A model generated the notes under the pieces. That model was given only the letters and a program-made list of their open reading frames with translations. It was not told where the DNA came from and ran no database searches. From the NCBI GenBank assembly GCA_000091205.1, contig AP006500.2: a stretch of 64,000 nucleotides of DNA; one strand, given 5' to 3'. Below, piece after piece: positions 13,527-60,374 of the stretch (position 1 is the first letter of the stretch; each line of letters begins with the position of its first letter). A program made the translations under genes and the position numbers. This DNA comes from Cyanidioschyzon merolae (taxonomy: Eukaryota).

Positions 13527-14143
13527 CACGCTAGGTGGCTATACTCGTGGTCGACGCGCTGGAACAGGCTGGGCGACGAAGCACGAACTGTCGCATGGAT
13601 TTCGGTTCAAGACCTGCAGAGTCGACCGGACAAAAGCAACCCAGTAAACCTCATTCATTGCCTGTACCTCGGTATGCTTGTGGGCGTTTCGTTGGTGACT
13701 CGTGATCTTCCTGGACCTTCGACCCCGTTGTGTGGCGCTTAAGCTTGTTATCTGCCTCTGCGACCAGGCAGCGAGAAGCTTTTCGCGATGCTGGTAACAT
13801 GTGACGTTGCTGCCGGCTTTGTTCGGCATGTTCAGTTGCACCTTGAACACTGCAAGCTTCAAGAGATGGCGGAAATGAAACCGTGCAACCTCCGGGACGT
13901 GATCACCCTATGGAATCCGCAGAGAAGTGGCCTGTTGTTGCAGCTTCTCGCGCAGACCAGAGGTCAGCATGCACTGGGCGCTTGTCTGCGCGCGTACATG
14001 CATCTGCACTGCTACCTCTACGCGAACGATAAGGACTGGTCCGGTTCTCGTAGGACGTAAAAAGTTTCTGTGGCGAGGCAGTGGTGGCCTCCTCCGTGGT
14101 CATCGGCAATGTCCGCGGATCTCCGAAAGTCCAGACAGAATCC

Positions 14144-14396
14144 GGGATCTTGCACCGTCATCAAACATCTGGACGCATTCATGAAAACTCTGGCAGAAAC
14201 GGGGATCTTGCACCGTCATCAAACATCTGAACGTATTGATGAAAACTCTGGCAGAAACGGGGATCTTGCACCGTCATCAAACATCTGAACGCATTGATGA
14301 AAACTCTGGCAGAAACGGGGATCTTGCACCGTCATCAAACATCTGAACGCATTGATGAAAACTCTGGCAGAAACGGGGATCTTGCACCGTCATCAT
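14144..14396. repeat. Minisatellite, 58-bp unit x about 4.4 copies. Unit: gggatcttgcaccgtcatcaaacatctgaacgcattgatgaaaactctggcagaaacg.
   Basis: Unit starts at 14144, 14202, 14260, 14318 and 14376, a constant 58-bp spacing with 1-3 substitutions. It ends in a short (CAT/CAC) run. The period is not a multiple of 3, so it is non-coding. Confidence 0.9.
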
Positions 14397-21960: not shown

Positions 21961-24270
21961 GACCGTTTATATTGCCTGGGGAATAGCACCCACAACCAGT
22001 CCAAACCGGTTTGACAATGCACATCGACGTTGTGACACGTGCTGTAGTGTTGGCGATCGTGGTGGCGTGTGCCCTGCGTCCAAGATCGCCACCGCATCGC
22101 GTGTCGAGCCTGTAGCGTGCCACGTGTCCCATAGAGGGAAAAACGATGCTGTGGAGGCCCTCGGTGCCACGACGCTGCGCGCTAGGGACAATACTGTACA
22201 TGTCGTTGATCGTCTCCCATACCAATTGTGTTCCACAGCCCGGTGCGTGTCCTGAAATGCTTTTTTAGCAGATCATAGCAGATGCGATCGAGTTGGGTTC
22301 ATTTGAAGAAATAGAAAATCTAAGGCAAAGTTGTGGAGATAAGCGCAGGGGATCTCGAAGAGCCGATGTCGCCGAGTGCAGGAAAAAGCCGAAAGGAATA
22401 CCTTCTCGTCGGCCATCGATCGGAGATAAACAAGCGACGGCGACGAGGAAGAAGATGAGAGGGGAGGAGATCGTCGAGAAAAGGTATTTACTCGACGTCA
22501 TGATGACGAGATTATAGCATTATAGAGGGCATGAGTTTTAGGCATCCTTGCAGCGGCGCGTTCAGCCCGCGTCAATACGCGCATAGAGTTCGTGAACCGA
22601 TACTTCAACGCCGCTGCAGATATCAGACGATTTGCGGTGCTGGAGGCCAGTCCCTGGTAGCTCACGTGATCCAACATTGTGGGGCAGCGTCCCAGACTCG
22701 AAATGTGCCCAGATAAACTGAAACTGATGGAAGGCGGCCGGTCGAAAAAGGCTGGGAGGCGTCTTCAAGTCGCCGTATATGCATACCCCCCGTGGTCGTG
22801 GGGCATTACGTTCTTCACTGAACACAGATCGGAGCGCGCAGATCGTCTAGTCTGCTGTAGAGAAGAGAGGCATGCGAGCCGTTCTCGGTGTTCAAGCATT
22901 AACGAGTCGCTCGTACGCATGGACACGACAACGAGACGTCGAGCACGAGGCAGTGCATAGCCATATGCGTCACTTTCGCACGCGCGTGCACGTAGGACAC
23001 GTTGTTGCCGCGCAGAGGACAGCGAGGTATCTAGTCTGAGCCAGTGGATAATCCAATGGGCCGTTTTCGCATTTTTATGCACGACGGGATGCTGTCTATT
23101 AAAACGGACTGGCGCGGGTACGCGGACGCAGCCGGTCGTGAGAGCGGAGTCCACAGCTTCCCTCTAGGGTATTTGTGGAAACGACCGTCTCCCGCACAGA
23201 CTTATGGTCTAGAATGGAGCATTCGGCTGGGGAAATCTCTGATTCCCTCGCAGGCGTGGAACGGGCACTGGACACAAGGCCGCGATGGTCGCGCGCTCGA
23301 AGGCCGGAGGGTTTCACGATACCCTGACGTGATCCAGCCCGAAGTTTCGGAACACTGCCAACTGAGGAGCGTGCACACACAGGGTGCTCCTTGACTTGCG
23401 GTACTGGGGCGGCAAGACGGCAACGATTCGGATTACATGGAAAACGGGTTCGGGCGAGGCGCTTCGGCCTATCATGATGTTTGTGCTGTCGTCGTTGTGC
23501 ATGGCAACGAAGTGCGGGCCCGTCGGACGGTAGAACCACCGCTCTCCAAAGCGACAAACCTCACCACCATGAAAACCCGCGTACGGTGGCTTTTCTGCAT
23601 CACCAGTACTGATTCGAGGGAGCGCCTCCCTGAGGCTTCGGTGTCCCGGGCGCGATTCACTTTGCCTGCGCGGTATTCCGGGCCCAGCGCTCGCATCATT
23701 CATTGATTAGGGTTTTCTGGCAACTTGCTTGTTGCTTGCATGAGCGGTGCGCGCTCTGGGTATGAATTCCGGCATCAAGCCAGGGTCGACTTGCGTATAC
23801 GGTGCGCCAGCTGCTCCGATCAAACATGCAATGCAGCGGAATGTTCGGTTGACGTCGCGCAGCGCTTACAACCATCGGACAAGCATGACGTTGATGCTTC
23901 CGGCACTAAGTCAGAAAGAGCCGTCTCCTGCATTCCAGTATGAAGAAGGCGACAGGGACAACAAAGACACCAGTTTACGGTTCTGGTGAACAAGTTTTCG
24001 AACCGATGCCCCAGTGGCATGAGAAGACCGTTCGGTCTCTGTGCTGCACACGCTCTGGTGCTACAGGAGCTATTGCAGACGCTCAAGGCAGGCTTTGTGT
24101 GATGTAGAGCGTACGAATGACCAATAACTTCAAGGGAGAGTACGAAAAGGATATGGTGGAACTCGGATCTAGAGCTTGGAATAATGGACGCTCTCTCGGA
24201 GGCCGATCTGCTTCTAAGACTAGGTTATCTCTAGTCTCTGCAAACGTTCTGTCCATGAGGAGAGCAATAG

Positions 24271-26514
<2,244 letters not shown>

Positions 26515-27916: not shown

Positions 27917-30651
27917 CGACGTGCGCTTTGTCCCGCAAGACTCGGAACCCAGTGTTGAAGCGGAATTCTCGAACGCAGAGCTGCTGCGGATCGTCCGTCG
28001 GACGTGTTGACGCCGCGTCGCGTCACGTGACGTGGCGCCGCTCCGATGCGCATACGTTATTTACAATAAAGTACAAGTTTTAACCTAGCGTGCTGGGAGC
28101 GGTACAGGGACTCTCGATTTCTGGAAATTTATGGACATTGGCGTGGGCCTTCTCATCGGCGGCGTGCGGCTGGACGCCGCTAGGGCGCATCGCACGACAT
28201 TGATGTCCGTATAGAATGGAGCTGGTCCACGTCATGATCTCGGGCGAACACGCAAAAATTTGGTTTTCTACTGTTGGCATGAACACGGGCCCTTGCGGGC
28301 TTTCTCTGGGACTGCTCCCTTTTTGCCATTCTAGGCTCCTGCTTAACATGCATCGGTATCTCCTGTGCCTCCAGCTCCGTTGTCCGTAGTCGAAGCACGT
28401 GGATGGCAGCGTTAAACTCGCGACTAAAGAGCGAAGGGCTGCTGCTCGCGCATACGCGATTATCACATAGAAAGTTGTTATGATCTAGGCGTCGCTTGCC
28501 ATTTTCATCTTTTTTGTTTGGAGCCTAGATTCGCGCTCCGGAGCGTGAACATTTGATTTGCTCGGGTGTGCCACATATGTCCACCAATGCCCCGCATCCT
28601 CCTCCGAGACCCATACTGTGGCGCGTGAAGGCTTGTTTCGTCGCTCAATACATGCCGTTGATGAGCACAGTGGGCTAGCATCGATACTCTCATCTGTTTT
28701 CACTCCAACCGCCGAACCTGACGAAGGGGGTTTTGTTCAGAGCGCCCTCAGTGCATACTATGTGGGGTGCTCATGCAAGCGAACGCTGTTCCATTGGATA
28801 CAAGCTTTCCTGAACGCGAAGCCTTCCATGATGAAACATTTACTTGAAGGAAAGCGCAAGCAGGCGAAGAGATGAAGAAACTTCCATCCGTCTACGCTCC
28901 GTTCATGCAAAGCGATGACCTGCTCTCCACTGGAAGCGATCGCCCCAGCGATGAAATATCGTGTGCAAGCCCGTTTCTTGACTAGCACAAGAGACGCCAG
29001 CCAATTAGATGTTCTCTTATGAACGGTTTTGCGCTGCTTCGGAATGCCGTTTGTCGATGGTCGTGAATTTAGAAGTAATTGTGTTTCGAGTGGGCTCCAT
29101 TATTTTATGTGGAAGGTTCATCGAGTTTTCGGAATGAGTTTGTGAACAAGTCGCCATTTTGAGGACGTCGAGTGCCTTTCACTGTCAATCCAGAGGCCCG
29201 AATGGCTGTACCCACGAGTTACCTTGAAACAGAAAACTCGAAAAATTGAACATTGCATGTTTTCAGCAGTCTACAAGTGCGCAAAAGAGAAGCGCTGATG
29301 TTTCTACACATGCATTGGATGATGATATCGGATCGAATGCGAACCCCTATTCGAGGACTTGGAGAATTTTCTTTATGAAAGTGACGTAACGAATTCCAGA
29401 TGAAAGAATCGCGGAAGCAGCTCCGAAATAGCGACCGAGAATCCTGAAACTGCACGCTCATCCGAAGGCCCTTCATCCTGGACTTTTAATGCCTAGCGGG
29501 TAATTCTAAAACCAGCTCGAACATGGACCCAAGTACAGAAAGAGATCATGCAGTACAGTGTTCCATTTCCATCTGACATGGCATTGGATACGCGCCACCT
29601 TCTCCAAGCAAGGTTCAGCGAGCCGGTAGCGCATGCGGATCCAGCGCTCCATGCAATTCCTCATCGGTGAATACCGACCGACGACCCGTGAAGCGAATCT
29701 GCGATGCAGTCCAAACACGATTGCAAGGGCGAGGCTCGGTGCCCAGGGACTCGTCCTCATCGGCGGACTTGTCCAACGCCTCGGGCCGCGGAGACAGGCC
29801 TACGTACGCAGCCTGTCCGAGCACACACTGACGTACAGACGCGATTACGCATGGGGTGAAACATTCCTCGAATGGAAACATTCAGCCGTATGGCAAAGCT
29901 AGTGCGTCTCCGAGCTGCATTCGCAGTGTCGGTATAGATGACATTGCGGATGTGCGCGGCAGGCTCTGGGTACGGTGTCCATGCAAAACGACCATCCTGC
30001 CCGCCATAACTGTACGGGTGATGGCTCTCGGACCATGAGGTTACAGTGCGACATAATAGACACACTCCCATATGCCGGTACTCATTGCACAGTCGCAGAT
30101 TCCTGGTTCTCGTAAACGAATATGCAAGGAGATATCCCGCGCGCCGCTCCTCTATGCATCGATTCCGCCACAGAGCGCCTGCAGCGGGGCACACACCCAG
30201 CGACCCCGTTCACGGAATAGCTGACTCGAGCCTTATCACCACATGACCAACCCGTATTCTATTGTAAACGGAGAGCGAAAGCATGAACGCTGCGAGCCGT
30301 TACTACCCAACGCTCTCCGGCTGGTCGATGACGTCCTGTCTTCCGCGTGCAGCGACGCAGCTGTAGACGAAACGGCGCGCGCTACGCATACCCTGTCGCA
30401 GTGTGGATTTTTTAATCGGACAGAACTTTTGCACAGGCCAGCGTTCCCCGACTGTGCGCTTCATATCAGCGCATGGTAAAGCATCCATCATTCCACGCCC
30501 TACTTCCAAGTTCCACTACCAATACTTCCTCTCAGATATACCAGTCGTTTGATCCGTTCTATCGTGTGCCGGGTGCATGCCCTGATCATCGGCGATAGCG
30601 CCTAGAGCGCCGGAGCGCGCTGCCGATGCGCGCGTCGCCGACGCCGCATCC

Positions 30652-40143: not shown

Positions 40144-40535
40144 ATCCGACTTGAGTATCGGCCAGCAGTTGGACGTGGACACTGCGTCGGATACGTGCAT
40201 CGAGACAGTATAAGCATTCCCTTACGACTCACAAGCGTATGCCGCTGGTCCCGGACGGAGACGTGTTCCGGTCTGGGTAGAATCACACGAGCGCAGCTGC
40301 AGCAGGTTCCCCAGTCGGTGATCTCTGCACGTTAGATTCATCTGTGGATGAGAGTATCCTATGGATCCTCAGGGATATACGCAGATCGCGTAGGGTAAAC
40401 GCATTTATTCTTGATGGTGCATTGCACGATAGAAACGTATTCATGTGATGCGTATGCCGTTCTTGCATTTGTACGCGAATCTTACCTCGCTGATGGTGGA
40501 ACGTTTAAGCATATGAGAAGGAACGCTGCTCTCCT

Positions 40536-40787
40536 CGCTCGTTACAGTCATCACTCGGTGCTTGGGAAAGCATCCGGTTCGATTCACCGGTATCCCGTCA
40601 GTGCAAGTCGTGGTACTCGCATTGCTCGTTACTGTCATCACTCGGTGCTTGGGAAAGCATCCGGTTCGATTCACCGGTATTCCGTCAGTGCAAGTCGTGG
40701 TACTCGCATTGCTCGTTACTGTCATCACTCGGTGCTTGGGAAAGCATCCGGTTCGATTCACCGGTATTCCGTCAGTGCAAGTCGCAT
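40536..40787. repeat. Tandem repeat, 84-bp unit x3, between the Nup93 stop and the sulfite oxidase start.
   Basis: cattgctcgttactgtcatcactcggtgcttgggaaagcatccggttcgattcaccggtattccgtcagtgcaagtcgtggtactcg is repeated at 40536, 40620 and 40704 with about 97% identity. Each unit contains a ccgg-ttcgattca-ccgg hairpin. It lies in frame with the downstream SO ORF, but 5' of the chosen start at 40897. Confidence 0.9.
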
Positions 40788-42375: not shown

Positions 42376-43234
42376 GCGACGTTCATCTAGGATGCGCACC
42401 AGCAGAAGTTTTATCCTCGAACGGAACGCGTCCACGTTGACGCCAGTGTACTGTGCAGCGCGTGGTCGAGCAAACGGCGCCATATCTCTCGAAACTGCGG
42501 ATATGCATTGAACAGCGCCCTACAGCGTTTTGTCTACATGTTACCCAGTGATTTTCTTGTGAGCACGCTGGCGCTTGGTAAGCTTAAAGTGGATGTTTCG
42601 TTGGCGCCGCGTTCTGACTCCGTCGACGTGAGGAGATGGCAGGCATCCCTGTGACGAGAGGCTTTTCCCACGACGCTATGTACACTCCGCATACCTGGTT
42701 TTCAGTAGCGAATCGAGCTTGATCGGAATGTCAAGTGCAAAATTTCAGTCAAACGGAGACATAGATACGATGTGATGCAATCGAATCGGTACTCCTTGGG
42801 CATTTGTGAAACGCATTTCCAGTCCGGGATCGGTTATGAGGTAAACCTGTCGAGATTTAGGTATGGGTAAGAGTACTTGTTTTTGTCTTGAAGAGGAGAA
42901 CGCTTCAAAGCTTGATCGAATCGTTCCAACGAATCACTGGATTCCTCGCTGTGAGGATCGCTCAGTTCACACCTGAGTGCAAGCACGCCATCGTCAAATG
43001 CCACGTCGTCGGTCCCTGCGTACAAAGGATGAACCTTGCGAGGTCTGCAAAACTCAGGAACGAGCGTTTTCGGTTCTGAGACGCTCTAAGGTCCAAGAAT
43101 TGGACGCCTCTTCGCCATATGCATCACAACTGTACACACTGTCCGGTAAGAGAGTACACGCGCAAAATGAAGCCTGGCAAGTCGCTCGCCTCAGCTACAA
43201 CGCCACCCACACCTGCCGATGCATCGTCGTTGTC

Positions 43235-43252
43235 GTGGTGGTGGTGGTGGTG
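43235..43252. repeat. (GTG)n trinucleotide microsatellite.
   Basis: gtcgtggtggtggtggtggtgccg read directly. Confidence 0.85.
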
Positions 43253-43600
43253 CCGCGGCCCGAGCCCTCGGGGTCATGTGTTCTATCAGGCTCTCTGCGT
43301 CGATCTCGGATAATGACGACTCAATCTGGGTACCGGAGATCACGATTTCGGACCTTGATCCCTTCAAAAACTGTCTGCGAAGTGTTTGCAGCGCGGCATT
43401 GCATGTACATGCATCATGACACCTCTGCACTGCCCGAGAAGCACCAACATACCGATGACTTGGGCCATCCGCACAACTTGGTACACCCACACATACAAAT
43501 GCCATATCCAGAGCCTTCTGCTAGTGTCTGGTCGCTAGACGATGCATCCGGAGAGCGCCGTCCGCGGACGTTGCACTCGCCTTGAGGTAGTGCGCGAGTA

Positions 43601-44701
43601 TCACGGAGCTTCGATACCGGGTCGCATCAGCAGCGACGCTGCCAACCCGAGGTTCCCGTTCGCTGCTGCGAGCGCTGACCTGGCTGAGGCTTCATCGAAT
43701 CCCATGGCAACGAGGCGCTGAACATTGACGTCTGTCTCGTTACGAGCCGGAGCGGAATCGAGGCCTCTTGCTTCTGCGATCTCTCTGTCGCTGAGAAACG
43801 GAACAGCGCGGTCTCTCTCTCGCAGAACATTCTCTCTCAAATCAATACACATTCCGTGCTTGCGCAGCGTGTCGAGACCCAGAAGCATATCCGTATTCAG
43901 CTGCTCGACAATGGCAAAGGAACATTCATACCATTCTCCATCGAGTTCCATAAGCGCCATATGGACCCGTCCGATGAACTCTGCCCGTCCCAGGCCGATG
44001 GCAGTGCCGCGAAAACGCCGATCAATAAGTCTGCTGAGACCGGAACGCTCCGCACAAGCCTGGCTCATAACGGTGCACTGTGCGCCACTGTCGACAAGTG
44101 CAAGGACCGGCTGGGCGTTGCGAGCTGAGTCAGCAGTGACACGAACTCGAACGTACAGCGGCGTAATATACGTGAACGACTCTACATTGTGCTCCAGAGC
44201 AGCCGCCAGATTCTCCTGAATGTTATGTTCATGAATCGCAGCTTCAATCCGGCGCTGTAGCTCTGGACTCATGAGCTCATCTTCAAATGGCATCGAGGTC
44301 CAATCAGAGCCGCTTCGGGACACTAGTCCACTGACGCCAGCTGTGGCAGGTAAAGCGCTCGTCTCTGAGATAGGGGCAGGCAGCGCAGCGTCGCGGTCAC
44401 GTACCGAGTCTGGTGCAGTCGTCTGTGCACGCTCCAGGGCTTGATTTCGGAACTGAGGTTCAACAGTGATAAGTTCATCGTCCGGAAGGGCTAGCTCGCG
44501 AACGGTTCGTTGAGGCGGGAGCAGCTGGCCCCGCCAACGAAACGCATAGTTTACGGCTGCGTCTTCCACAACACTTTCGCTGGGGTGAAGCTCGACGAGA
44601 ACCGCTTCCAGCAAGTCCGCAATAAGTGCTTCTTCTGAAGCTTCTAAAGTCGCGAAACGCTCACCGTCTGCAGACACAAAGCATAATCGTTTACTCGTCA
44701 T
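43601..44701 (-). CDS. DDI1: DNA-damage-inducible protein 1 (Ddi1): ubiquitin-like domain, retropepsin-like aspartyl protease domain and C-terminal UBA domain.
   Basis: N-terminal UBL MTSKRLCFVSADGERFATLEASEEALIADLLEAVL. Protease core YVRVRVTADSARNAQPVLALVDSGAQCTVMSQACAERSGL...GLDTLRKHGMCIDL with the D-S-G-A-Q active site typical of Ddi1. C-terminal UBA VQRLVAMGFDEASARSALAAANGNLGLAASLLM. Confidence 0.85.
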   Translation of the reverse strand: MTSKRLCFVSADGERFATLEASEEALIADLLEAVLVELHPSESVVEDAAVNYAFRWRGQLLPPQRTVRELALPDDELITVEPQFRNQALERAQTTAPDSVRDRDAALPAPISETSALPATAGVSGLVSRSGSDWTSMPFEDELMSPELQRRIEAAIHEHNIQENLAAALEHNVESFTYITPLYVRVRVTADSARNAQPVLALVDSGAQCTVMSQACAERSGLSRLIDRRFRGTAIGLGRAEFIGRVHMALMELDGEWYECSFAIVEQLNTDMLLGLDTLRKHGMCIDLRENVLRERDRAVPFLSDREIAEARGLDSAPARNETDVNVQRLVAMGFDEASARSALAAANGNLGLAASLLMRPGIEAP

Positions 44702-45559
44702 GGTACTGTCCAGAAAACTCAAGAGAGAAACCGTTTTCAGCGCCACGCGTGACGCCGACTTGTCAGGTAGCAGCAGGAAGACCCAAGTATGTGCTCTGAA
44801 CGCTCAGGATCAATCTAACCCGTGCATACCTCCGGGACTGATATGCTCAGGTGTATAAAAAAGCCGCCACTGAGAGCAGCTGTCGCCTTAAAGGACGAAC
44901 ACCAGCGCCCGTGGTGGAAAGTTCCAGCGTAGTCTGGCAGCTGTGGCGGTATTGCCGTTGTGTGCAGCCTCGAACCGCTGCTGCACTCTGGGGCCAGCAC
45001 GTGGATGCAAAAGTATGCAGGAGACTACCTGCAAGGTCCGTATACATCCAGGGCAGTCTACAGGGCCTCTACAATGGCGATCAGTCGAACTGTTCACGCT
45101 GCAATGGTGTCAGTTTAGCATGGAAAACTGAACTGTTAGCTCGGTTCCTGCCTTTCGAATCTTTCCGAACTTGTGCAGCCACGACGATCGAACTGCAGCA
45201 AAAAGGACTTAAGGATGTATACGTAGGTTTAGGATTGTGGGTCTTATGTTTAGGCTGGCTTCTTCGACACGTTGTCGGTGGAACGCTGTGCATCACCAGT
45301 ACCCGGGTGATTCGCGACGCTCTCCAACACGGGTTCGTCGACGAACCAGTATGCTTCTTCGAAGCGTACAACCAAAGCTCCACGCTTCTCTATTGCTTAC
45401 GTTTAACGTGGCCAAATCACGCATGTTTCAAGTTTTGGGCGCTTATCTTTCAAGGCATCTCGTGGGCGTCGCAACGCACGCTGCTGGCTTGGCGCGGAAA
45501 AATGCTCGACGTGGCCATTGGCTGCATATGCACGAGCTCGTATCGAGACCTCACTGAAC

Positions 45560-47590
45560 TTGTTGCATCACAAAATCGATCTCGTTGGAAAGACGCATCC
45601 TCTTGTGTCTCTTGCCATCGAAGAAACTCCATTGGGCAGCAGCAAGATATCTCCAAGCAGATACGCTCTGGGAGGAGGCTCCCGTCTCTTCTGTTTCCAC
45701 GGAAACGGGTCTTGGATCTGGACTTGAGTCATCGTAACATCCACCACTGATGGAGCGTACGTCACTGCTTACCAAGAACAGAGCGTATACGGATCGAAAA
45801 TTGTCCACTTGTGCTTCTGTCCGGATTTTTCCATGGTATTTGTTTCACCATGAAGAACATCGCGTTCTAGAAACTCGCTTCTGTTCGTTCCTCCGTTGAT
45901 TCGCGAGTGCCCGAGGAGCTCCGGATGTCAAGTGCATCGTGCGCTTCTATAAAATCCATGTTGTCGACCGGCTCCTATTCTGCCGCGACGCTCGTTGTCC
46001 TCATCGGATGCATTTGCCATGCTTTTGCGCTGGCGCCTCGTCCTCAACCAAGCGGGAAGAAGCTCTAACCGAGGCGCGCGGCGAGCAACCCCGAAATACC
46101 TTCGGAAGCGGCTAAAGTCTCCTGCGCTCTGGAGCTCTGATAGAGCACTCCACCAGCAAAAACACCATCACTATCGTTGACGTGTTTCTCGTTGACCACC
46201 AGTCCATTTTCTCTTCAGCGTCCTCGTCTGTGTGAACGATTCGACGGGGATGTATCACGCTCTATCCTCCGATCCGCTGGGCTTGAACGAAGCACCGGCC
46301 ATGAAGAGATCCTTTATGCCGCCCAAGCACGCGACCGAGTCGTCGCCGGTTCGCCCGAGGTCATCGAATCCTTTACTGGCTGGTGCCCGTGAATCCTGGT
46401 GTGTCTCATTCACTGTTGTCATGCGTATCTTTTTCCTACGAATTTCTTTGTGTTATCCAGACTGCATCGAATCATCAAGCGAGTGCATGCTTCGACACCC
46501 GCAAAGCCGTTCAGCTGTGTAGCTGAAGTGCTTGCGGCTTCGATGGAACCACGCAGCTGGGGGGCTGTTTCCAGCATGTGCTTGGGGTTTAGTGAGGACA
46601 CGGAAAGCCGTGGGTCTCAACAGCAGGTCAAGCGAGTTTCCCACTTTTGAACCTCCTCGACGCATCGGACCTGCGCGTCCATCACCGTCAGGTAGTGGCG
46701 CTGCTGGACCCAGCTGTAATGACGTACGGTATCCAGTACGCTGGCTATGTGTTCTGACAAGAACAGGTACGTTCCGATGCGTCCGTTTAAAAAAGTAGCA
46801 TCAAAGCGTAGCGATGTGCTTCGAGCAGGAAAGCGTTCCATCCAAGAGTGGCAACGTTCTCCGGGTGCGGTACGCTCTGCTTTTCAGACCGCTTCGGTAC
46901 ATGTCGACTGCTCTTCCCCAGCTGTTTGCCTGGCATTCCTAGTGTGCATCGACTGTGCGCTTCCGTTGATAAACATGCAATTTAGATTTATTCTCTATAC
47001 GCTTTTCACCTCTCTGCTTTAAGCGTTTTCAGATATCCGCGATCCGCTATCGGCTATGCATTTCGCGAAACATGCGCCCCGATGAGCGCCATTGCCTCAG
47101 ATGCCGCGCTTCAAGCATCGAGCACCAGTTCGTGTCGAAGACGATCAAATCAATCGAAACCTGTATACGCGTCCCTGAGCACGTTCCCCAGGGCCCCGAA
47201 TCTGTTCTGAATTGAGTTCAACGATGGAGAATATGTCGGAGAGTATAGCATGACGCATCCTGCGTTCTCTGCTGGATTCTAAACAAAAGAGGGTTTGTAG
47301 AACGCGGCATTTTGTATGATAAAACAGAAACAGAAAGGCAAAGCCAGGCTGGACGGCATTTCGAGATATGTCGATACCCCCATGCTCCCCTCGAGCAGAT
47401 CGATGACGCACGCTCCACTGGACTTGATCGCTATGATGACTCAAGTCCGAGTCAAAGACCCCTTTCCATGCAAAACGCAGAGCAGGGAGCCTCTGGGAAC
47501 ATATCACGTGAAGACTACCATACAGCGAGGCGAGGATTCCATTTCGTCGATGATCGCGAAGTGACGAAGATTTACCTTTCGAACTGAATC
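45560..47590. mobile_element. Candidate non-autonomous foldback/MITE-like element of about 2 kb, bounded by roughly 200-bp imperfect inverted repeats.
   Basis: Reverse complement of 45700-45760 (cgtacgctccatcagtggtggatgttacgatgactcaagtccagatccaagacccgtttcc) matches 47400-47462 (cgcacgctccactggacttgatcgctatgatgactcaagtccgagtcaaagacccctttcc). Similarity continues outward (gggagcctc...; tttcttcgatgg/tttcgtcgatga). Short ORFs on opposite strands of the two arms encode the same peptide (MTQVQIQDPFPWKQKRREP versus MTQVRVKDPFPCKTQSREP). No transposase-like ORF inside. Confidence 0.5.
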
Positions 47591-48329
47591 AACTCTTTTA
47601 GGTGGGAACATCACCGAACCTGCGGTGCGCGCATGCGAACAAGTCCCCCAGAGATCACGTCAACTTTATCTCGTCGTTTGCCTACAGGCGCGACTTGCTC
47701 TGCCCACGTGTTGTTTTCTGAAATAGACAGATCGAAACCTTGACGAGGACGTGACTAGGGCGTGCTAGACATAAGGAAATGAGAAAACTGGAGGCCTTCA
47801 ACCTTGAATTGGACAATGATAGTAGTCATTTTGAGAACACGACTTCGCGGGTGGCGCCAATCATCGTCATGAACGTTCCTTGACGAATGCCAGCGACAGA
47901 CTGCCGACGAAGCCATTCCCAGAAGCTGACCGAGAAACCCGAATCGACGAATGAATCCGCAAGCGCTCGTTGTGGCACTTTGAAAGTCGCTGCTTTGCGT
48001 GTAAAATGTCCAGAAAAAGATCGACAAACAGGAACAAGGCAAGTAGTTCAATGTTCCATATGAATCGGATGCAGCTGCAGCGATGGAAACATCATTCACC
48101 GTTTTCGAGCGCGACGTTCGCATAGCGCAACGACACGACTATTGGTTGGGTTCCACGTGCTCAGTCAGCCGCTATGGAGGCAGCGTATTGGATCGGAGTG
48201 TTCTCATCTGGAAGTCGAACTTGGTAGTGGCGGCTGACACACACCCAGTGCGAAAAAAAAAGTCGAGTTTTACCTTTCCTCGCGCCGAGCGTTAGCGCGG
48301 AACGAACTCCCAAGGCTCTAGGGACTCGG

Positions 48330-49412
48330 ATGCAGCCACTTTGCTTGGAACAGTGCTCGCTTTTCGGAAGTGCCGTAGCGAAAGTGAGCTGGGTGCGCAC
48401 TTTTCCGATAACGAATACCAGAGGAACGGGTTCATTTCACAGTCGAAACTTGGAAAAAATCTGTCGACTGGGGAACAACTGTTCGCGTGAACACAAAAGT
48501 GCCACCCGCTTTGCATTGCAGCTGTTGACGGACGCTCGAGAGCCCAGACCGTCTTGGCGGCCGAAACAAAGTTTAGGCCAAAACTTCCTCAAGGATCCTG
48601 CGGTTGCCGCCGCTATCGTGCAAGCTGTGCGAGCTTGTGAGCCCCTCGAACTGGTCGAAATTGGTGCCGGAACCGGTGTGCTTACAGAGCCGCTTCTGGA
48701 AGTATTCCCCGGGCTTGTGGCGCTCGAGCTTGACGCACGTGCGGTGGAGCACGTTCGAAAACGCCTTGAACAGAGCGAGCGCTTCCGTTCGGAGCATTTT
48801 CCCGAGCTGCGCACCCGTATCTACCATGCAGACTTTTTGCGCTCGGACTGGCTCAGGGAAACCGGCATGCTCACTAGGCCCGAGCCGCGGATCACGCTCG
48901 TGGGGAATCTTCCCTACTACATTGTATCGCCTATATTCTTTCACTGTATTGAGAGCATTCAACGATACCGGAACGCAATCTTCATGGTTCAGCACGAATT
49001 TGCAGAACGGTTGATGGCAAAGCCTCAGTGCAAGGACTACGGAGTCCTATCGGTGCTGGCTCAGCTCCACGCCGATATTCAAGTGCTTCTCCGAGTGCCG
49101 CGAAGCGCATTCTATCCCATGCCTAAGGTGAACTCTGTGGTACTGCGCCTGGATTTTCGAGACCCGTTGCAAAAGGACTGCATGTCTTGCGGCGTCTCAT
49201 CGGATGTGATCCGCCTGGCACTGCATCGGCTCGTTCGACGAGCATTCCAACAGCGGCGGAAAACTTTACGGAATACGCTTGGCGATCAAGTGCCGATGAG
49301 ATGGTCGCGAAGACGTCCTGAGGAGCTCCATCCAGCTGAATTCCTCGAATTAACGATGATTCTATCGCAGGATGCTGCGCTAGACACGGGAAAGCCGCCT
49401 GTGTCTGGCTAG
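48330..49412 (+). CDS. rRNA adenine N6-dimethyltransferase family (KsgA/Dim1/TFB-like). The N-terminal extension and divergence suggest an organellar (mitochondrial TFB1M-like or plastid PFC1-like) form.
   Basis: LGQNFLKDPAVAAAIVQAV...LVEIGAGTGVLTEPLL (SAM-binding motif I) and LVGNLPYYIVSPIFFHC (the NLPY catalytic motif) define the KsgA/Dim1 fold. A roughly 80-aa N-terminal extension is present. Length 360 aa. Confidence 0.8.
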   Translation: MQPLCLEQCSLFGSAVAKVSWVRTFPITNTRGTGSFHSRNLEKICRLGNNCSREHKSATRFALQLLTDAREPRPSWRPKQSLGQNFLKDPAVAAAIVQAVRACEPLELVEIGAGTGVLTEPLLEVFPGLVALELDARAVEHVRKRLEQSERFRSEHFPELRTRIYHADFLRSDWLRETGMLTRPEPRITLVGNLPYYIVSPIFFHCIESIQRYRNAIFMVQHEFAERLMAKPQCKDYGVLSVLAQLHADIQVLLRVPRSAFYPMPKVNSVVLRLDFRDPLQKDCMSCGVSSDVIRLALHRLVRRAFQQRRKTLRNTLGDQVPMRWSRRRPEELHPAEFLELTMILSQDAALDTGKPPVSG

Positions 49413-52400
49413 CCCCAGCAAATGGAGCTGGAGCCGAGAAAACAACTGGGCACGATCGACAGCTCGACGCCTGTCGTCGTCTATAAGCAGTGATGTAGTG
49501 CGCAGCGCAGGATGAGCACTGAACCTTCCGATCTCAGCGTACACCATGAATTACATCCAGGCAGACATTCGAGGATCCTGTGCACATGAGGTTTGGATGA
49601 GACCGCATGGTCACCTTACGTGCGGGTCGCGGCACCGATTTGCTTCATGTAAAGCGTACACCAGGAAGAGACGAGCGCTGCACCCAGGAATTCGTCGATG
49701 CAGCGCGAGGAGGAGTCATGTGTACTCGGTTCCCGGATGTGCGCTGTCAACGTCGACATTGCCGAACCTGGTCAACGGTACCAAAAGCGCGATGAACGAG
49801 TGCCCAAGAGACCGAGTTCGTCGTTCCTTTCTGGTTAGACTGGGTACACGGTGCGCATGTTTCGTGCACAGACCGCGTAAAACGCTCGGGATCGCAACAC
49901 CATCTATAGTAACCTCTGATTTCGAGTTTGGGTATTCCAGGTAGTATCGAATGATAGAAGCCCATGACCGTCAAGGAATTGCCCAGGAAAACCGCCTCCG
50001 TGCGTATATACCGGACGAAAGCCTCGCCGGGTTGCTCAACCCGACCATACTAGTTCCTTGCTCGAGGCGGAAATCCAATCGTCTATGTCTTGGCTAATCG
50101 TTTGCTTTCATCAAAAGTGTTCAGCGTTTCAGCAAAGAATTCGCTCATAATACGAACCGAATACCTCGAAAAGACGCCCAACACAAACCCGCTGGACGCT
50201 CCAAAAGTACGAGATATTGAAGGATGGTGGTAATGGCATTCGAGTCTCGGTGCATAACGCACTTGCACGCATCCTTGCTGTTGAAATCACATCATAGCCA
50301 GCCTCTCACCTGGGAAGACCTCACCAGCTGAAGTTTCGTCAGCTTACCGTACACCATTTCGTCCACCAGGCTCCGTTTCGCACGATTCCTCCAGACCAAT
50401 TTCACCGTGTACTCGTGCTCACTATATGTGTATGTCGTCCTAAACGCATCGATGGGAATCGGGCTGATTCGATTCCTGCACGCGTTGAACGCCCTGGTCG
50501 AGGGCGTACGAGTGCAGCGTTCGCGCGCAACGGCACGTCCAGCGCCGCAGGAGAGCATCACCAAAGGACGCTGCTTGCCAGTGATGTACGTTTCCAAATC
50601 AATGAAAAAGTTGGTGGATGCAGGTTCTTGCGTCCATGCATCCGCATCTATTGGCGACACCCGGGCAAGTTCTCTCATTCTTCAACTGAAGATCGTCCGA
50701 ATGAGCATTCTGGATGCTCATGCACTTGCCGAATGAGACGTACAAGACATCCTCTGCTGCTCGATAGGATGCTCAGAGCGTCGAAATGGGCCTGGCGCTG
50801 TCACTCCAGGTGTTGGTATGCCTCCTGACGTCAAGCGCGCAGGACTCTCGACACGACCGGGCCCCGGCATCGTTGAGCGGCTTCATCTGCCTTCCGTTCA
50901 GGCCGCTGGCGCTGTTCTCGTGATGCAGAGCAGAGCGATGGCCATAACGCCGTTCAGGCCAGGATCCATGCTCATGAACAAGTCCTGCTCCTGGGCTATC
51001 TTGAGTGCTTGAAAATGGGTCACGTGGTGCTGCTCAGGCAGAGGTTTCACGAAGTTCATGCAAATGGATATACCATCAGACTCTATCATGCCAGTAAACG
51101 TCTTTCCATTTCCACCCTGTAAGCGATAAAGGTCGGACGAGCTCCACCCCAATGGTCTTCGTGAAATTTCTCGAATGGTTCGCGCTTGCTCGCTGGGAAC
51201 AGCTCTCTTCGCCTGCTCCTCTAGTTTGCTCGGTGGCATGGGAGTGGTAGCTGTGCTCCATTTCGGTTTTTTTTCGCGGGATTCAGACGCCCTGCATGGA
51301 CGAAGTTACTAAAGCTCGTCTTCTCTTTTTATGTGTCTACGATTCCTGAACTACATTTTCTTCGACGTCTTCGTCACAAGTATGCCCACGAATCGAAGCA
51401 CACTTTTTGGCATTCTCCCGTGCTCGAGCAGAGACGAAGACAGCAGGTCTGGGCTGCTGGAACTAGAGAACAATTGCTTTCCGAAGAAAGGTGTCACGGA
51501 TGTAAACGACTCGTCTATTGATCGCAGGCATTTGCATGGCATCGGACAACGGACAAAACGCCATCCGCTGGACTGAAACACGAATAGCCCCCTAGTACGA
51601 AGAACAGGTCGATGCTAATTACAGCTGCGTGCTCCGCGACCGCTTGTGCTTCATGGAATTCGACGTCGTGTAAGAGCAGAACACAGGACTGTGCGAGCGA
51701 AAGCCCGCGAAATGCATCGACAAAGCATGAGGTGTTGGCGGCTCCTGTCCGCTTTGCGATTCGTAGGCGTCCACTCGATAGTATCGTCGCTCGGGGATGT
51801 TGTTGTTGGTATTCTCGCTCGCCTGTTCTTTACGAACACCAATTTACCCGTATTGGAGTACGCATGTACAGATCTACTATTTCCACCGAATTCGTGCTCA
51901 TCGAGTCAGACAAACACCTCTCCCTTCTGTACCCAGCGTTCGCATTTCAATCCAAAATCGATCGCGTGTTCTTCGACGTGCAAAGCGCTCCCATGCAATC
52001 GCGCTGCACGCTTTACCCATCTGTGTGTGTTCATTACCGTACGTGCCGATGGTACGAACACTTCACGTCCTGTGCTCTGTTTTGTACTATTTCATAGAGA
52101 ACTTTTTGAGTTGAAGGTATGAGAGAGGAGGCCTTCGTGTCGATAGAATTTGATTCGTTCGGTTCCCGGTGCACGACGTTCGTGTCAAGGACGACGACAA
52201 GTCTAGTTCAGGCATCTGCTTACCCTTGTCTGACTCATTTGCAATCGAAAGGTTGGGTTTCGCAAGCTAAGCGTGACAACATAAATTCTGTTTTTGGCCT
52301 TTATCGAATCTACAGGACACAATCCATTTGTTGATTACGTAAGACAAAAAAGCAAGCAATAACGAAAAAGGCATGCTGGTTACGTTATCAACGTATCCAC

Positions 52401-53294
52401 TGCTAGTTTGGGTATAGGGAATCCACGCAGCGAGGCATTCTAGAAGCGCCTGGGGAAACGCGCGCGTCTCCGCACTCGGATACTGCGTCACCAACGTCCG
52501 TGCGCACGCTTCCATACACGAAGGGATACTGCTGTGCAACTGATACGCAGTCCTTCTCTGGAAGCGTGGATGGCGCGTCCGTCAGAATTCCACCATACAT
52601 AACGCGAGATACGCAACACACAGGTGACACCAGGGCGCATCCTGGTCACGGATGCGTTGTGCGCGGGAGCATGCGCAGCGTAGCTAGTACAGCGATCATG
52701 CAGCATGTGATGGGAGCATTTCTGGTTGCCAACCGCTGACATACATCCGGTGTAATTTGGTTAGATGTATCCCTCTGATACCATATCAAGAAATGCGTCG
52801 CGTACCCGAACATGCCTAGCGCTGCTTGTCAAGCCAGCACGCATCATATCAAGTTCGCAGCAGCCCGCGAGCGAGCACCGATGAACACCAAGGTGTATCG
52901 CGGCGCTCGTATGCCGCGCCTCGCGTCCCTGCGGTGGACGCCTCAGAGATGAGTGTCTCTGCAGGTCAGGATCCTGTCCAGGTGAGGCGCGCACTGCCGG
53001 AAAGTCTCGTGGCAGGCATTTGGGCAATTGGACAGGAGCCTCGGTGCTCTGTGGTCATGCGTGAGACCCGGTTTACCCGCTCTGTGTCTGCTTAGGGTGC
53101 TAGATGCGTCATCAGTAGGTTCCGTGCCACGATGTAGCACTGGGAAGACGCGATGGAGATGCGTACCCTCCAAAGACCACAATGTCAAGGTGTTTCTCAC
53201 ATCCACCCGGGAACCATGCGCAGCCACATCCGCCAGCTTTTCTACCCTTGTAAGGCTTATTGAGCGTGCCGCTACAGCGACGACGTTTCCTTTG

Positions 53295-55860: not shown

Positions 55861-56074
55861 GCGGTTCCCGGTTCCAGCAAGAGGTTAGTGTGCGCGCCTC
55901 CCTGACGCCCACACAGAAGTGTACACTTTTGCTGCCGTACACGAGCACTGCTGCTGCTCAAGCGCCAACTCTAGCGCTTCCTTCAATAGCAGTGCAGCGT
56001 CTGGTTTCCTGTGTATACGAAAAGACGCTCCTCGCGTCTCTTGACTGTGTCAGGGGCACTTGCGTGTGCGCGCA

Positions 56075-56360
56075 CGCATGCACAGCATCATCAGCGCAGC
56101 GCAGCAGGCAATCGATTTCCTTCCCCATAAGGGGTGAAGCTGATAATGAAGCTGATGATGATCGCGATGACGCTGAGGCATCGCGCCGGGCTGGAAACCG
56201 TGGGCGGATGGATGTCACGCATGCACAGCATCATTAGCGCAGCGCAGCAGGCAATTGATTTCCTTCTCCATAAGGGGTGAAGCTGATGATGAAGCTGATG
56301 ATGATCGCGATGACGCGGAGGCATCGCGCCGGGCTGGAAACCGTGGGCGGATGGATGGAC
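56075..56360. repeat. Direct duplication, about 143-bp unit x2, followed by a (GGAT)n-like tract.
   Basis: cgcatgcacagcatcat[ct]agcgcagcgcagcaggcaat[ct]gatttcctt[c]cccataaggggtgaagctgat[ag]atgaagctgatgatgatcgcgatgacgc[tg]gaggcatcgcgccgggctggaaaccgtgggcggatggatg occurs at 56075 and 56218. Then ggatggacggatggatggatgg. Confidence 0.9.
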
Positions 56361-59300
56361 GGATGGATGGATGGGCGGCGCTGGTCCATTGCCGTGCCTA
56401 GATTTTGACGAGGCGCGCGCTGCGTGACGCTGCGAGGCACGGCCGACGTCGCGGGTTATATGACCGGCAAGCTGGAAGCACGCTGTGACTAGCGTAAACC
56501 CTGTTTTAGACGGAAACCTGTCTGTTGGACGCAAGACCGAGACAGGGTAAACACTAGCGCAGCCTGGGGGGTAGTAGCTTGCACGGCAACTGGCGGTGAC
56601 AGTTCCGCGAGTCAATCTGTTTTTTCTGAGGTAACCAGCTAGAGTTGGCATTGACGAATGGTGCGGAACTCACGAGTCACTGATTACAGCGGTTTCGTCA
56701 CAGCGTGCAGTGCGAGGCAAGCACTCGTCGGCTGGCATAGTCCCGTGAGACTGCACCTGGGCCGGCGTTTCCGGCTGCTGAAAAGTCGCTGGACGCGGTG
56801 TTTCTGCGGGCACCTGCGCTGCCGGGCGCTCAACACGCTGTCGTGCACACATAGGCGGCTGGCGGGTTCCGCAACCTGCGGACCGTTCGCAAAACGACCC
56901 GGAACTGTGCTGACTGCAGCGTGGTTGGCGGCTGTACCCTCAACGTCACGGGCAATTGAGTCAGGTTCGGCTACCACGGAATCAGTGAAGAGCGCCGCCG
57001 AGGAGATCGGAAACACAGCAGCGCAAGCCGCTACAACAAATAATGTGGACTGGAGCTCGCAGCTCACGAACTGGTTGGCTGCGATTGATGCAGTGCTGCT
57101 GGTGAGCGCCACAATTCTGACTATCATTGTGACAGTTCGCGACTGGCGCAGGCGAAGTGCTAAGAAAGAACAAGAGTCGAAATCAAAGGATTCAGGTGCA
57201 AGTAAAAATGCTCGCGAAGGAGATCGTTTGAAAGCAGCAGCGAACGCACCGCCCGGAAAACTCAACCGGTACCAACGACGCGAGTTACGGAAAAGACGGA
57301 ATCAAGACGACTCGTCGCTTTGATGACAAAGACCGGGAGCGCGTGAACGCAACCACAAAGTATTCGTAGATTTTCGCTCTGTTCTCATTGTAGTTTCGCG
57401 AAGCGCCCCGGGAGGAAACTGCAAAGCGCGCATCGAGGCTGCTGTTGCAAGAGTCGAGTGCCGCGGCGAGTCTCGAAGCGCTGCGTAAGCCGTCCGGAAT
57501 CGATACGCGCGCTCGGCACCCGTCGACACTAGCGACGATCCTTGAACCTACCTCTGCAGCGCTTATCACCACATGGTAGGATGAGAAGCTCCGGCATCGT
57601 GCATCACCGCCGCAATGCCTGCCGCGAAGGGCTCCAAGGAGCACACTACGGCCGGAACGCTGTGTGGCATTGTGCAGAGGCATTTCCACGTAACCTTCAT
57701 GGAAGGGAGCGCTTTGACGAGACTGGAAAAGCAAGGAGAGCACTACAGGAACCTCGCGCAATGCACGGTGTCCAAGAGACACGTCACTCGCGCGTTCTTC
57801 GTAAACGAATGTAGGCGCCTCGTCCTGCTTGCGGATACCGCTCGTGTCTCTCGTCATCTGTCGTTCCGGCGGTCTGCTGAGCGAACGAGATAGCTCGTAG
57901 CGACACCAACGCCTGTACGTCAACATGCAGAGAGACGCGCATTCCATGCACGTGTACTGTATTCGAAATACAGGACGTGTGCCATTGCGCTGGTCGAGTG
58001 GCGTCGCGAATCATCGCTCGGAAGCGCCCGTTATTGGTTGGAGGCCCCAGGAACGGCACCAGTTCCTGTCCCGTTGCAACTTCGAAACAGTGACCGGTTC
58101 GAAGGTCATATTGCGGAAACAGGTTCTCGTGTATCAGCGATAAACAGAGTGAGCCTGCCAGCCTCGCATTCCCATACTTGCATAAGTGCGGAACGCGTCT
58201 CACCGGGGACGGCAGTGCTGGTTGTAGCGGTAGTGTCCGGTTGACGTTTTGCGACTGCTTGGCGTGCTTCGCTGGCCACTATCGCAGATCATGCGCAACC
58301 TAGATGGTGCTTGCTTCTCCCGGACACATGATTGGCTCGGATGATTCCTAGCGAACGTTGGTTCACGCGATACAGATCTTTTACGAATGGCCCGTCAGCG
58401 GGATGGTCCGGATTGTTTTCTCGTCTACGTTATCAACCAGGAAAACGATGTAGCCATTCCTCAAACCCGCGCTCTGAAACCAGTCGGGGAAACGCGCTGC
58501 TCCAAAAGTCAACGAAACGGCGTTAGAGTCAAGGTCGGACGTCTATGGCGCCAGTGCACTAGTGGTAGCCCAGATGAATCCGGACGCTCAGCTCAGGCAC
58601 TGACACCTGGAGGGTAGGCTTCGTTGACGAAGCACGCAACACGGCCACAAGAGTGCACTTACACCAAGCGCTTCCAAGCATGCGTGAAACCTGCTGCAAG
58701 GTACTTAAACTGCTCCAGCAGCGCTGTTGCACGGTGCAACTGCATTCGCGCAGTGCAATCACTGGACGATGCGTCACGGCAAATAATTGCACCGGAAACT
58801 TGGGGAATATCTGACTCGGACTTGGTCTATATTTCGGTTTCACGGCAACGCCAGTGCTGAATCCTTTTGCGACACTGCACTGACGACGGAGCGGTACGCG
58901 ACATCGTCCCTGGATGACGTGTTGACAGCCATACGCTGAACGATCCGTGAGCTTCTCACGTTCAATCACCGGATTCATTCGAAACACGAATTCCGCTCGC
59001 TTCCTGAGCACCCGCAAAGCCGCATTCGTTCCCAGAATGATTCCTGTCACGGGGGATACGCCCAGATGCTGCCGTCGATTCTCCTTTCGCGGAAACGGAT
59101 GCCAGACGCTGACTCCAGTTCTCGCAGCGATGGCGTAGCGTGCGGGACGTATCACCGACTCGTACGAGGGCAGCGTCGACAGATCCACGATATTCGACTT
59201 GTTCCTCAGCCCGAAAACTCATTCCGGTGCTTGTTTCATCATGCGGAACATCGCACTCCACAGATCCCCCATCGAATGGAGCAGCGTGCGCTTTCTTAGA

Positions 59301-60374
59301 TATAGCGGATAGCGCTCTCGCTGATATGATCACCCTGAACCAGCTCGTGATCGTCTGTACGCCACTTATCGCGGAAACGGAGGAGGGCATCGAGCGAAGC
59401 CTTCTGTGCCCGACAAGCGCATGTTACGAGCGATGAGGCAAGCGTCCGCGCTGACCAGGACAGCACTCGGCGAGGCAGTTGCCGCTGACATATGGGAGCA
59501 CCTGACCACAGTCCCGTGTCACCGCTGCATAAGGCGCATCGACGCCATGTACGAATTCGATGAAAACGGCATCCAAAAGGGAGATCGCAACTTTCATGGT
59601 TGCATGAATTGCAGCGATAGCAGCAGGAGGATGGAGCGCCGAAATCGGGATGTGCGCTATCGCCATACCACCACCAATATCGTTCGATTGCGAACAACAA
59701 GGGTAGAGGGAAACCGGAGTCCGGCGCATTCGTATCCCCAACTAGTAGAGAGGAAAAGGAAGCAGTCATAGACAAAAAGTACCCGCAAATGTTCCTGTCG
59801 ATGATCATAAGAAGATACCCAAACGATTCCGTGTGCACGCATTCGTTCTGCACGACCGATCCCAGTGAATCCGAATGTCACGGCCCGCCAGCGTGCATGA
59901 TGCGTTGGCAGGCGCGATCACCTGCACTGTACGCTCGCGCATGTGTGGCTGTACCCGGTGCGCGCCATCCAATGCGCCATGCGCGTGCGCGCCACCTGCA
60001 TGGACACGCTGTCCAGCACGCATGCCCAGCGATATTCGGGAGGCGCGCGAAGCGGCACATCGTGATCCGCGCGAATCGCTGTTGATCGCGGCAGGCCGCG
60101 AAGCCGCTGCCCCCAACGGGTCTCCGCATATCCAGCTGTCCACGATGATCAGCGGCGGCTGCGGCGGCTGCGGCGGCGATCGTTTCCGATGCGATGCACA
60201 GCGCGGGATATGCGTCGCACCAGCGCCCTCGGCACGCTCGCCTCGAACGCGCAGCGTGTACGTTGGCAACGGTATTGGTGCAGCTGTGGTTGCTTTGCTC
60301 TCCGGGTACGTACTCTTTGTGATACTGGGTACGCCATCTGGCCATATTCAGACAACTGTACGTCCCGTTGGTCT

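Follow-up and report, generated by a model that had tools for sequence, protein, structure and literature searches.

What is the inverted repeat that lies between a Ddi1-like gene and a gene for an RrnaAD/KsgA-type methyltransferase in Cyanidioschyzon merolae, a red alga, and how did its two arms come to face each other? The DNA in question is a 64,000-nt stretch of contig AP006500.2 (assembly GCA_000091205.1), referred to in what follows as the window. The initial annotation, made from the letters alone, had described an element of about 2 kb, at positions 45560-47590, bounded by ~200-bp arms that are reverse complements of each other at about 80% identity, and had placed it with foldback elements and miniature inverted-repeat transposable elements (MITEs). 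The inverted repeat is real and far above chance; its extent, its ends and its class have had to be redrawn. The best explanation, with a probability of about 0.88, is that the arms are two copies, inactivated long ago, that belong to a single family of DNA transposons in the IS630/Tc1/mariner superfamily and lie tail to tail. No present function is indicated.

Two fossil arms and their ends

Global alignment of 45560-45765 with 47395-47590 yields 129 matches, a share of 72% when counted over the columns aligned and of 63% when counted over the length of the longer arm. The alignment score of 11 lies about nine standard deviations above that of shuffled sequences (mean -44, standard deviation 6.2), and the top ungapped block (45675-45764 / 47404-47493) is 73% complementary. 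Thus, the inverted repeat stands while the identity claimed for it was too high. Gapped local alignment (sensitive BLAST and Smith-Waterman) carries the similarity much further: 45097-45885 pairs with 48082-47282 over 784 aligned positions at 59% identity and a score of 81, against a shuffle maximum of 16. The arms are accordingly ~790 nt long, not ~200 bp, and extend outward past the segments first marked by about 460-490 bp, to true terminal repeats; the unit that these delimit spans 45099-48080 and measures 2.98 kb. The near-identical short peptides noticed at the outset do exist, in open reading frames (ORFs) at 45568..45765 (minus strand) and 47316..47564 (plus strand), both of them antisense to the ancestral coding frame.

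The left arm (45097-45885, plus strand) is a fossil of the 5' ~0.8 kb of a transposon, comprising a terminal repeat, a putative helix-turn-helix (HTH) region and the DDE catalytic core from its first (D1) to its second (D2) acidic position. An 18-copy nucleotide profile built without the arms aligns to it over model positions 11-797 of 1410 (nhmmer; 45098-45876, E 1e-149), and it is 75% identical to the family consensus. At the protein level, the transposase consensus of 15 copies from outside the window matches with amino acids 3-245 at 45177-45906 on the plus strand (tblastn; 48-49% identity, E 2e-43). The 5' terminal inverted repeat, CTGCAATGGTGTCAGTTTAGCATGGAAA (45099-45126, plus strand), where the profile match starts, agrees with the family consensus CTACACCCGTGTCAGATTAAAATGGAAC at 20 of 28 positions; its first three bases, 'CTG' at 45099-45101, align to the C-TA flank of the family, and the element proper begins at 45102. 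With the frame projected through the nucleotide alignment, the D1 codon (45620-45622; consensus FVAIDETAF) is now Glu (LAIEETPLG) and the D2 codon (45853-45855; consensus CFIMDNIAFHK) is now Lys (CFTMKNIAF, followed by a stop).

The right arm (47282-48082, minus strand) is a fossil of the same 5' ~0.8 kb, 72% identical to consensus and aligned to the profile over model positions 4-801 (48088-47287, E 9e-130) and to the transposase consensus over amino acids 3-257 (47994-47225, minus strand; 45-51% identity, E 2e-45). Its 5' terminal inverted repeat (48053-48080, minus strand; plus strand GTTCCATATGAATCGGATGCAGCTGCAG) agrees with the reverse complement of the 5' consensus at 20 of 28 positions and ends in 'CAG' (48078-48080), which aligns to the TA-G flank of the family. 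The D1 codon (47546-47548) keeps its Asp (AIIDEMES), while at the D2 codon (47312-47314) Gln has taken the place of Asp (FIIQNAAFYK). Further in, at 47153-47281 on the minus strand, the right copy goes on as a relic of the transposase C-terminus with a YSP-x-LN-x-I-(E) motif: the minus frame of the arm matches Pfam DDE_3 (PF13358) over profile positions 67-135 of 146 (E 5.9e-5, 23.4 bits) and, weakly, NCBIfam IS630 (E 0.016). The third catalytic codon (47207-47209; YSPSLNSIQN, read by eye) is now Gln and lies 35 residues past the D2 position. This fits the DD34E spacing between D and E of the Tc1-like transposases, exemplified by D244 and E279 of Sleeping Beauty. In sum, the catalytic positions read E and K on the left, D and Q on the right, and the third is kept in the right copy only.

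The two terminal repeats are the best matches in the window to the 5' motif, bar a full copy at 28-29 kb; the background for such scores is ~7 positions per 64,000 at >=17/28 (at least 17 of 28), as established for the related 3' motif. With the left copy read from the plus strand and the right copy from the minus strand, the two face each other and their terminal repeats point outward. Between them lies unique sequence (45886-47152) with no recognisable homology, terminal-repeat-like motif or part of the Fanzor type that is described below. In six frames it matches nothing in Pfam except DDE_3 at its right edge; it is not similar to the 3' parts of other copies, lacks a homolog in the other contigs of this alga that were searched (347 kb), and produces no match above background in the terminal-repeat scan. 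A search for Fanzor matches across 44.7-48.3 kb (Pfam in six frames, and tblastn) found none, in either arm or between them. Neither Rfam, used in gathering and in E-value mode, nor a scan for tRNAs returned anything relevant.

An old, dispersed transposon family

The locus had been taken for the only structure in the window that resembles a mobile element. This proved wrong: the window holds five copies of the family, the two arms and three solitary ones, as well as a second, 2.4-kb repeat pair. The solitary copies, located by profile search and tblastn, have a common 1.4-kb form. Two are full-length and on the minus strand: 17175-18486, and 28188-29593 with both of its terminal repeats (29560-29587 and 28195-28222). 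The third, on the plus strand at 58617-59879, is truncated at its 5' end (model positions 179-1390). Every pair among the window copies scores far above shuffles, and the 59% identity of arm to arm compares with 57-59% of the arms to the solitary copies over their full length. A short inverted pair of 99 nt (24156-24254 / 30418-30516; 68% identity, E 3e-8) flanks the copy at 28-29 kb, its members 6 kb apart.

Metagenome contigs were scanned with a consensus motif chosen to match none of the window's own copies. This located 47 loci (L010-L056), several of which, 5-14 kb in length, carry two copies each; the 41 near-full-length copies among them reduce to at least 15 distinct genomic copies, on contigs of the same alga. 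Descent from a mobile element, as the initial annotation proposed, is thus borne out by further copies in the window and in the metagenome contigs and by family terminal repeats at the outer ends of the arms. The family makes up roughly 9% of the window. The divergent promoter region in which the arm pair lies is a location shared by two of the three other window copies; residence in divergent promoters was rejected as a rule for all copies, the one at 58617-59879 lying between two plus-strand genes.

The transposase becomes legible in the consensus. That of 20 copies has a nearly open frame in which the D1 and D2 motifs are restored, and it matches DDE_3 with 40 bits (E 4.6e-10, profile positions 3-117 of 146; cutoff 28.6). 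Its HTH matches, to HTH_Tnp_Tc3_2 (PF01498, E 5.7e-4), HTH_33 (E 5.9e-4) and HTH_32 (E 0.013), all fall under the curated cutoffs. A five-copy consensus matches DDE_3 over profile positions 2-102 (E 1.9e-4); joined to the C-terminus of the right arm it matches over 2-135, with 48.5 bits and E 1.1e-12. Among single copies the right arm alone has a Pfam match, and searches of PDB sequences with the right-arm fragment, a five-row profile and a Fanzor homolog produced nothing useful. To judge from these sequence features, the family is a Tc1/IS630-type DNA transposon of the IS630/Tc1/mariner superfamily. A protein-coding family under selection was considered and rejected: there is no conserved ORF, similarity extends to all frames, and codon positions show no bias.

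The ends of the element likewise emerged only from the 20-copy alignment, short inverted repeats around copies taken singly being at chance level. Conservation rises from a background of ~0.35 to ~0.7 at defined columns, which mark off the ~28-bp 5' terminal repeat whose consensus was given above and a 3' counterpart, GTTCCATTTTC(T/A)TCTGACATGGGTGTAG, at whose bracketed base the 20-copy consensus and the 15-copy consensus disagree. Next to the 5' repeat stand C (17/19), T (13/19) and A (10/19; G in 7/19), next to the 3' repeat T (13/16), A (6/15) and G (7/14), with random sequence beyond on both sides and no flanking direct repeat longer than TA. Insertion of IS630 elements duplicates TA in a CTAG-like target context. 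The flanks of the present family are consistent with a CTAG target and a TA duplication, a conserved TA being indistinguishable from terminal-repeat sequence without an empty site. Target-site duplications, for which the initial annotation had suggested looking around the arms, are not recognisable for either copy inside 45886-47281. LINE-like 5' truncation (that is, of the long interspersed nuclear element kind) and solo long terminal repeats, readings entertained while the copies seemed to share one end, were dropped given the terminal repeats and the DDE_3 homology.

The common 1.4-kb form is a chimera. Inside its 28-bp terminal repeats, a 5' part of ~800 nt of Tc1/IS630-type transposase is followed by a 3' part of ~600 nt that corresponds to the C-terminal end of a gene of the Fanzor/TnpB-like kind; the junction is out of frame and falls a few bases past the D2 motif. 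In the consensus past ~800 another frame has a 190-codon open stretch containing VIVGYGTGRGNGGGHRGEPSVPVKGMY, VDIWEHLTTAKCHRCEG, RNFCLCMKCVD and NRDLNAAINIL, which matches PF07282 (Cas12f1-like TNB, formerly OrfB_Zn_ribbon) above cutoff (30.3 bits, E 4.6e-7) and, by tblastn, the window copies at 17, 29 and 59 kb. For the copy at 28188-29593, the tblastn E values are 2e-28 with the transposase consensus and 3e-33 with the Fanzor consensus. The Fanzor frame of the 20-copy consensus is free of stops for ~370 codons, longer than we would expect by chance, and ~200 of these overlap the transposase frame; on a bolder and doubtful reading, a fused or overprinted protein could once have been made from it.

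The protein collection contains full-length relatives of the Fanzor part (P0007-P0010; 551-712 amino acids, 42-52% identity), encoded at L057 (8001-10139), L058 (8001-9833), L059 and L060. The two contigs examined are gene-dense, with genes for RNA polymerase Rpb2, UvrD helicase and Peptidase_S74, and look like giant-virus genomes to judge by this gene content. The nucleotide profile of the family matches L057 starting exactly at model position 800, the junction of the chimera. The JGI sample number of one giant-virus-like contig is near those of samples with this alga (an observation on the numbering alone).

All of these copies are old. Including the arms, they are 71-77% identical to the consensus, a Jukes-Cantor distance of ~0.30-0.37, and this uniformity indicates one old burst. 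Mismatch rates between copies are unbiased by codon position (0.43/0.44/0.46). In six metagenome strains, all of which have the inverted structure, the arms have 11-19 variants per kb and the interior 15.8 per kb, compared with 12-13 per kb in other spacers and 2-6 per kb in most flanking genes. The identity to consensus, the absence of codon-position bias and a polymorphism of intergenic level together mark the copies as neutral fossils.

How the pair could have arisen

While active, the element would have moved by cut and paste: as is usual in its superfamily, a DDE transposase would have attached to the terminal repeats, cut the element out and inserted it anew at TA, with CTAG preferred. 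The arms represent a form with an undisrupted transposase gene; they part from the 1.4-kb chimera exactly at the fusion point, beyond which the right copy goes on as a canonical transposase C-terminus; both facts make the arms candidate relics of an autonomous partner. That they cease to match the common form at ~800 is due to the common form changing its identity there, not to truncation of the arms. After inactivation, neutral decay has brought the copies to ~72-75% identity with the consensus and to 59% between themselves. A further step, that in the arms we have all that has yet been seen of an autonomous, full-transposase master that mobilised the very abundant 1.4-kb chimera, with transposons passing between the alga and its giant viruses, is doubtful; if true, the locus would be a record of that traffic.

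Given the transposon explanation as a whole, the odds are about even that two elements inserted close to each other and their 3' ends were later lost or decayed, an origin that fits the solitary state of all other copies. Several observations weigh against reading the arms as two transposon copies. Neither arm alone reaches the curated Pfam threshold, and the left arm has no Pfam match of any kind, so that the assignment rests on the reconstruction of the consensus and the homology of the arms to it. Within 45886-47281 neither copy has a recognisable 3' terminal repeat, 3' end or target-site duplication, and the inner parts of the two do not align, though those of two complete elements should. 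The flanks at the locus read CTG and CAG, not CTA and TAG. Finally, searches of a large protein collection found no intact relative of the transposase, also when it was queried with the frame-corrected translation of the right arm; the autonomous form is thus one that we infer and have not seen.

Alternatively, and as a corrected version of what the initial annotation proposed, the pair could be a single composite, a foldback-like derivative spanning 45099-48080 in which two inverted 5' halves entered one CTAG site in one insertion. Two family terminal repeats in proper inverted orientation bound the segment, each at 20/28, with flanks C-T(G) and (C)A-G, and none can be detected inside it; the match to the common form ends at one and the same model position (797-801) in both arms; and removal of 45099-48080 would leave a spacer of ~0.65 kb, like the 0.6-0.8 kb of relatives. 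The shared end at ~800, however, simply marks the fusion point of the 1.4-kb form that serves as the yardstick, past which the right arm continues as transposase. The arms resemble unrelated copies as much as they resemble each other, and neither the architecture nor the interior recurs: no second copy of the 45099-48080 unit or of its interior was found in the 64 kb of the window and 347 kb of genome, and among the ~20 other copies of window and metagenome none forms an inverted pair, all being solitary 1.4-kb units. A composite origin is possible but the less likely of the two.

The adjacency, inverted orientation and equal extent of the arms would also follow from a local, segmental inverted duplication of one resident relic, without transposition. 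Arm-to-arm identity (59%) equals that of arm to distant copy (57-59%), and the distance of either arm to the consensus is that of all the other copies, so any such duplication would have to be as old as the family burst; furthermore, the arms end outward exactly at terminal repeats, which transposition predicts and random duplication does not. This origin is improbable, both overall and as a share of the transposon explanation. Still less can be said for a functional inverted repeat that would serve the flanking genes as a bidirectional promoter module, structured RNA or cruciform: its location in a divergent promoter, shared by two of the three other window copies, is suggestive, but polymorphism is at the intergenic level, Rfam has no match, two related genomes that retain both genes lack the structure in their orthologous spacer, and 59% arm identity is too low to sustain a hairpin. 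The original reading, a ~2-kb non-autonomous foldback element or MITE with ~200-bp non-coding repeats, takes in the region of highest arm identity, which falls within 45560-45765 / 47395-47590, and is otherwise refuted, the similarity running ~460-490 bp outward to the real terminal repeats and the supposed repeats being transposase-coding relics with neither tandem subrepeats nor sharp ends at those coordinates.

Setting and relation to known systems

The arms occupy a 3.6-kb divergent upstream region (44702-48329) between Ddi1 (minus strand) and the methyltransferase gene (plus strand), whose assignments in the initial annotation, as Ddi1-like (Asp_protease/UBA) and RrnaAD/KsgA-like (KsgA/Dim1-like), hold. 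The window is nuclear DNA; its genes alternate in strand and have no evident introns. The Ddi1-like protein (43601-44701, minus strand) is unchanged on many metagenome contigs, whose identity to the window is 99.2-99.7%; the nearest named protein to it, with 57% identity, comes from Cyanidiococcus yangmingshanensis. Cyanidiococcus and a second related genome share the gene order; there, the spacer between the two genes is 604 bp and 790 bp, respectively; coding regions alone align with the window at this locus, and neither genome has a copy of the family.

Other features of the neighborhood deserve mention. The spacers 44702-48329 and 49413-53027 are both 3.6 kb long, versus 0.6-0.8 kb in the relatives (L007/L008), and the excess consists largely of degenerate repeats. 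The second repeat pair, 2194-4628 / 49933-52365, unrelated to the first, is also inverted, with 59.6% identity over 2460 nt and no long ORFs; it matches nothing in Pfam in six frames and, weakly, the transposase consensus in tblastn (2514-2789, E 5e-4; 51647-51790, E 0.008), and may by these matches be an older Tc1-like family. The KsgA-like gene (48330-49412) has 12.9 variants per kb among strains, as spacers do and unlike neighboring genes; over the first ~75 codons it cannot be aligned with relatives, and its true start may lie further downstream. An ORF at 42977-43585, with 24.6 variants per kb, is probably not a gene. An 87-bp tandem repeat (40529-40784; 94-97% identity), in the 5' part of an ORF with Oxidored_molyb domains, differs by one unit among metagenome strains: L002 has one fewer, L001 and L003 one more than the window. 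Further tandem arrays lie at 14125-14395, 24336-24626 and 56073-56357.

Taken by itself the finding, transposon debris that lengthens a promoter region, matters little: the feature is ordinary debris of a known superfamily, in a lineage without annotated elements of that kind. Its interest is more general. Genome-size differences among Cyanidiophyceae have been attributed to intergenic length (PMC13353863), and degenerate repeats explain why intergenic spacers are several times longer here than in Cyanidiococcus. In the published annotation of transposable elements (TEs) for C. merolae, Tc1/mariner elements do not appear and 40% of TEs have no class (bioRxiv 10.1101/2022.10.24.513474); a family of Tc1/IS630 type that is so dense and so degenerate shows what part of that fraction could be.

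Among the systems with which the locus can be compared, foldback elements and MITEs share with it the look of an inverted repeat and a non-autonomous state today. Foldback elements differ in that the arms here are 0.8 kb long, derived from coding sequence and without subrepeats, in an architecture that is not repeated elsewhere, the real terminal repeats being 28 bp. In place of the MITE pattern of a homogeneous, non-coding, multicopy element shorter than ~800 bp, there is a 2.98-kb unit with transposase-derived arms, of which no second copy was found; the classification as foldback element or MITE is wrong. CMe-1A / TE-N2_CMe of C. merolae is, like the present family, an old and abundant Fanzor-related repeat of a cyanidiophycean red alga; its copies are ~80% identical to their consensus (PMC3627910). 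It is described as ~3 kb in length, without terminal inverted repeats and unclassified (PMC3627910), whereas the present family is 1.4 kb long, ends in clear terminal repeats of 28 bp and includes part of a Tc1-type transposase; the two are set apart here by description, not by sequence.

Parallels also exist in elements in which Fanzor1 genes have been captured by Mariner/Tc1 transposons, with reported links to large DNA viruses, and in Mariner elements that have a 5' ~1 kb and terminal repeats in common and differ in their 3' portions (Bao & Jurka 2013, PMC3627910). The 1.4-kb form shares with the former a Tc1-type transposase 5' part and a Fanzor/TnpB C-terminus within TA-flanked terminal repeats; it differs in having only the last ~190 Fanzor codons, out of frame after D2, so that neither protein is complete. 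The PF07282 domain, present in the 1.4-kb relatives, is absent from both arms. The chimeric form and its relatives on virus-like contigs constitute a red-algal case of the known capture of Fanzor by Mariner/Tc1 elements.

The nearest relation is to the Tc1/IS630-like DD34E branch of the IS630/Tc1/mariner superfamily itself. The family departs from it in that every copy seen is dead, with no intact transposase found in public protein collections, that the third catalytic residue is Gln in the sole copy keeping this region, and that at this locus two copies meet tail to tail and neither has a 3' end that can be recognised. What it shares with that branch is a DDE_3 core with DE and DNxxxHK motifs, a YSP-x-LN-x-I(E) motif 35 residues past D2 (in the right arm), short terminal inverted repeats starting CA...TG, and an element size of ~1.4 kb; an N-terminal region with weak, sub-cutoff matches to Tc3-type HTH profiles and flanks consistent with TA in a CTAG-like context would agree with it as well.

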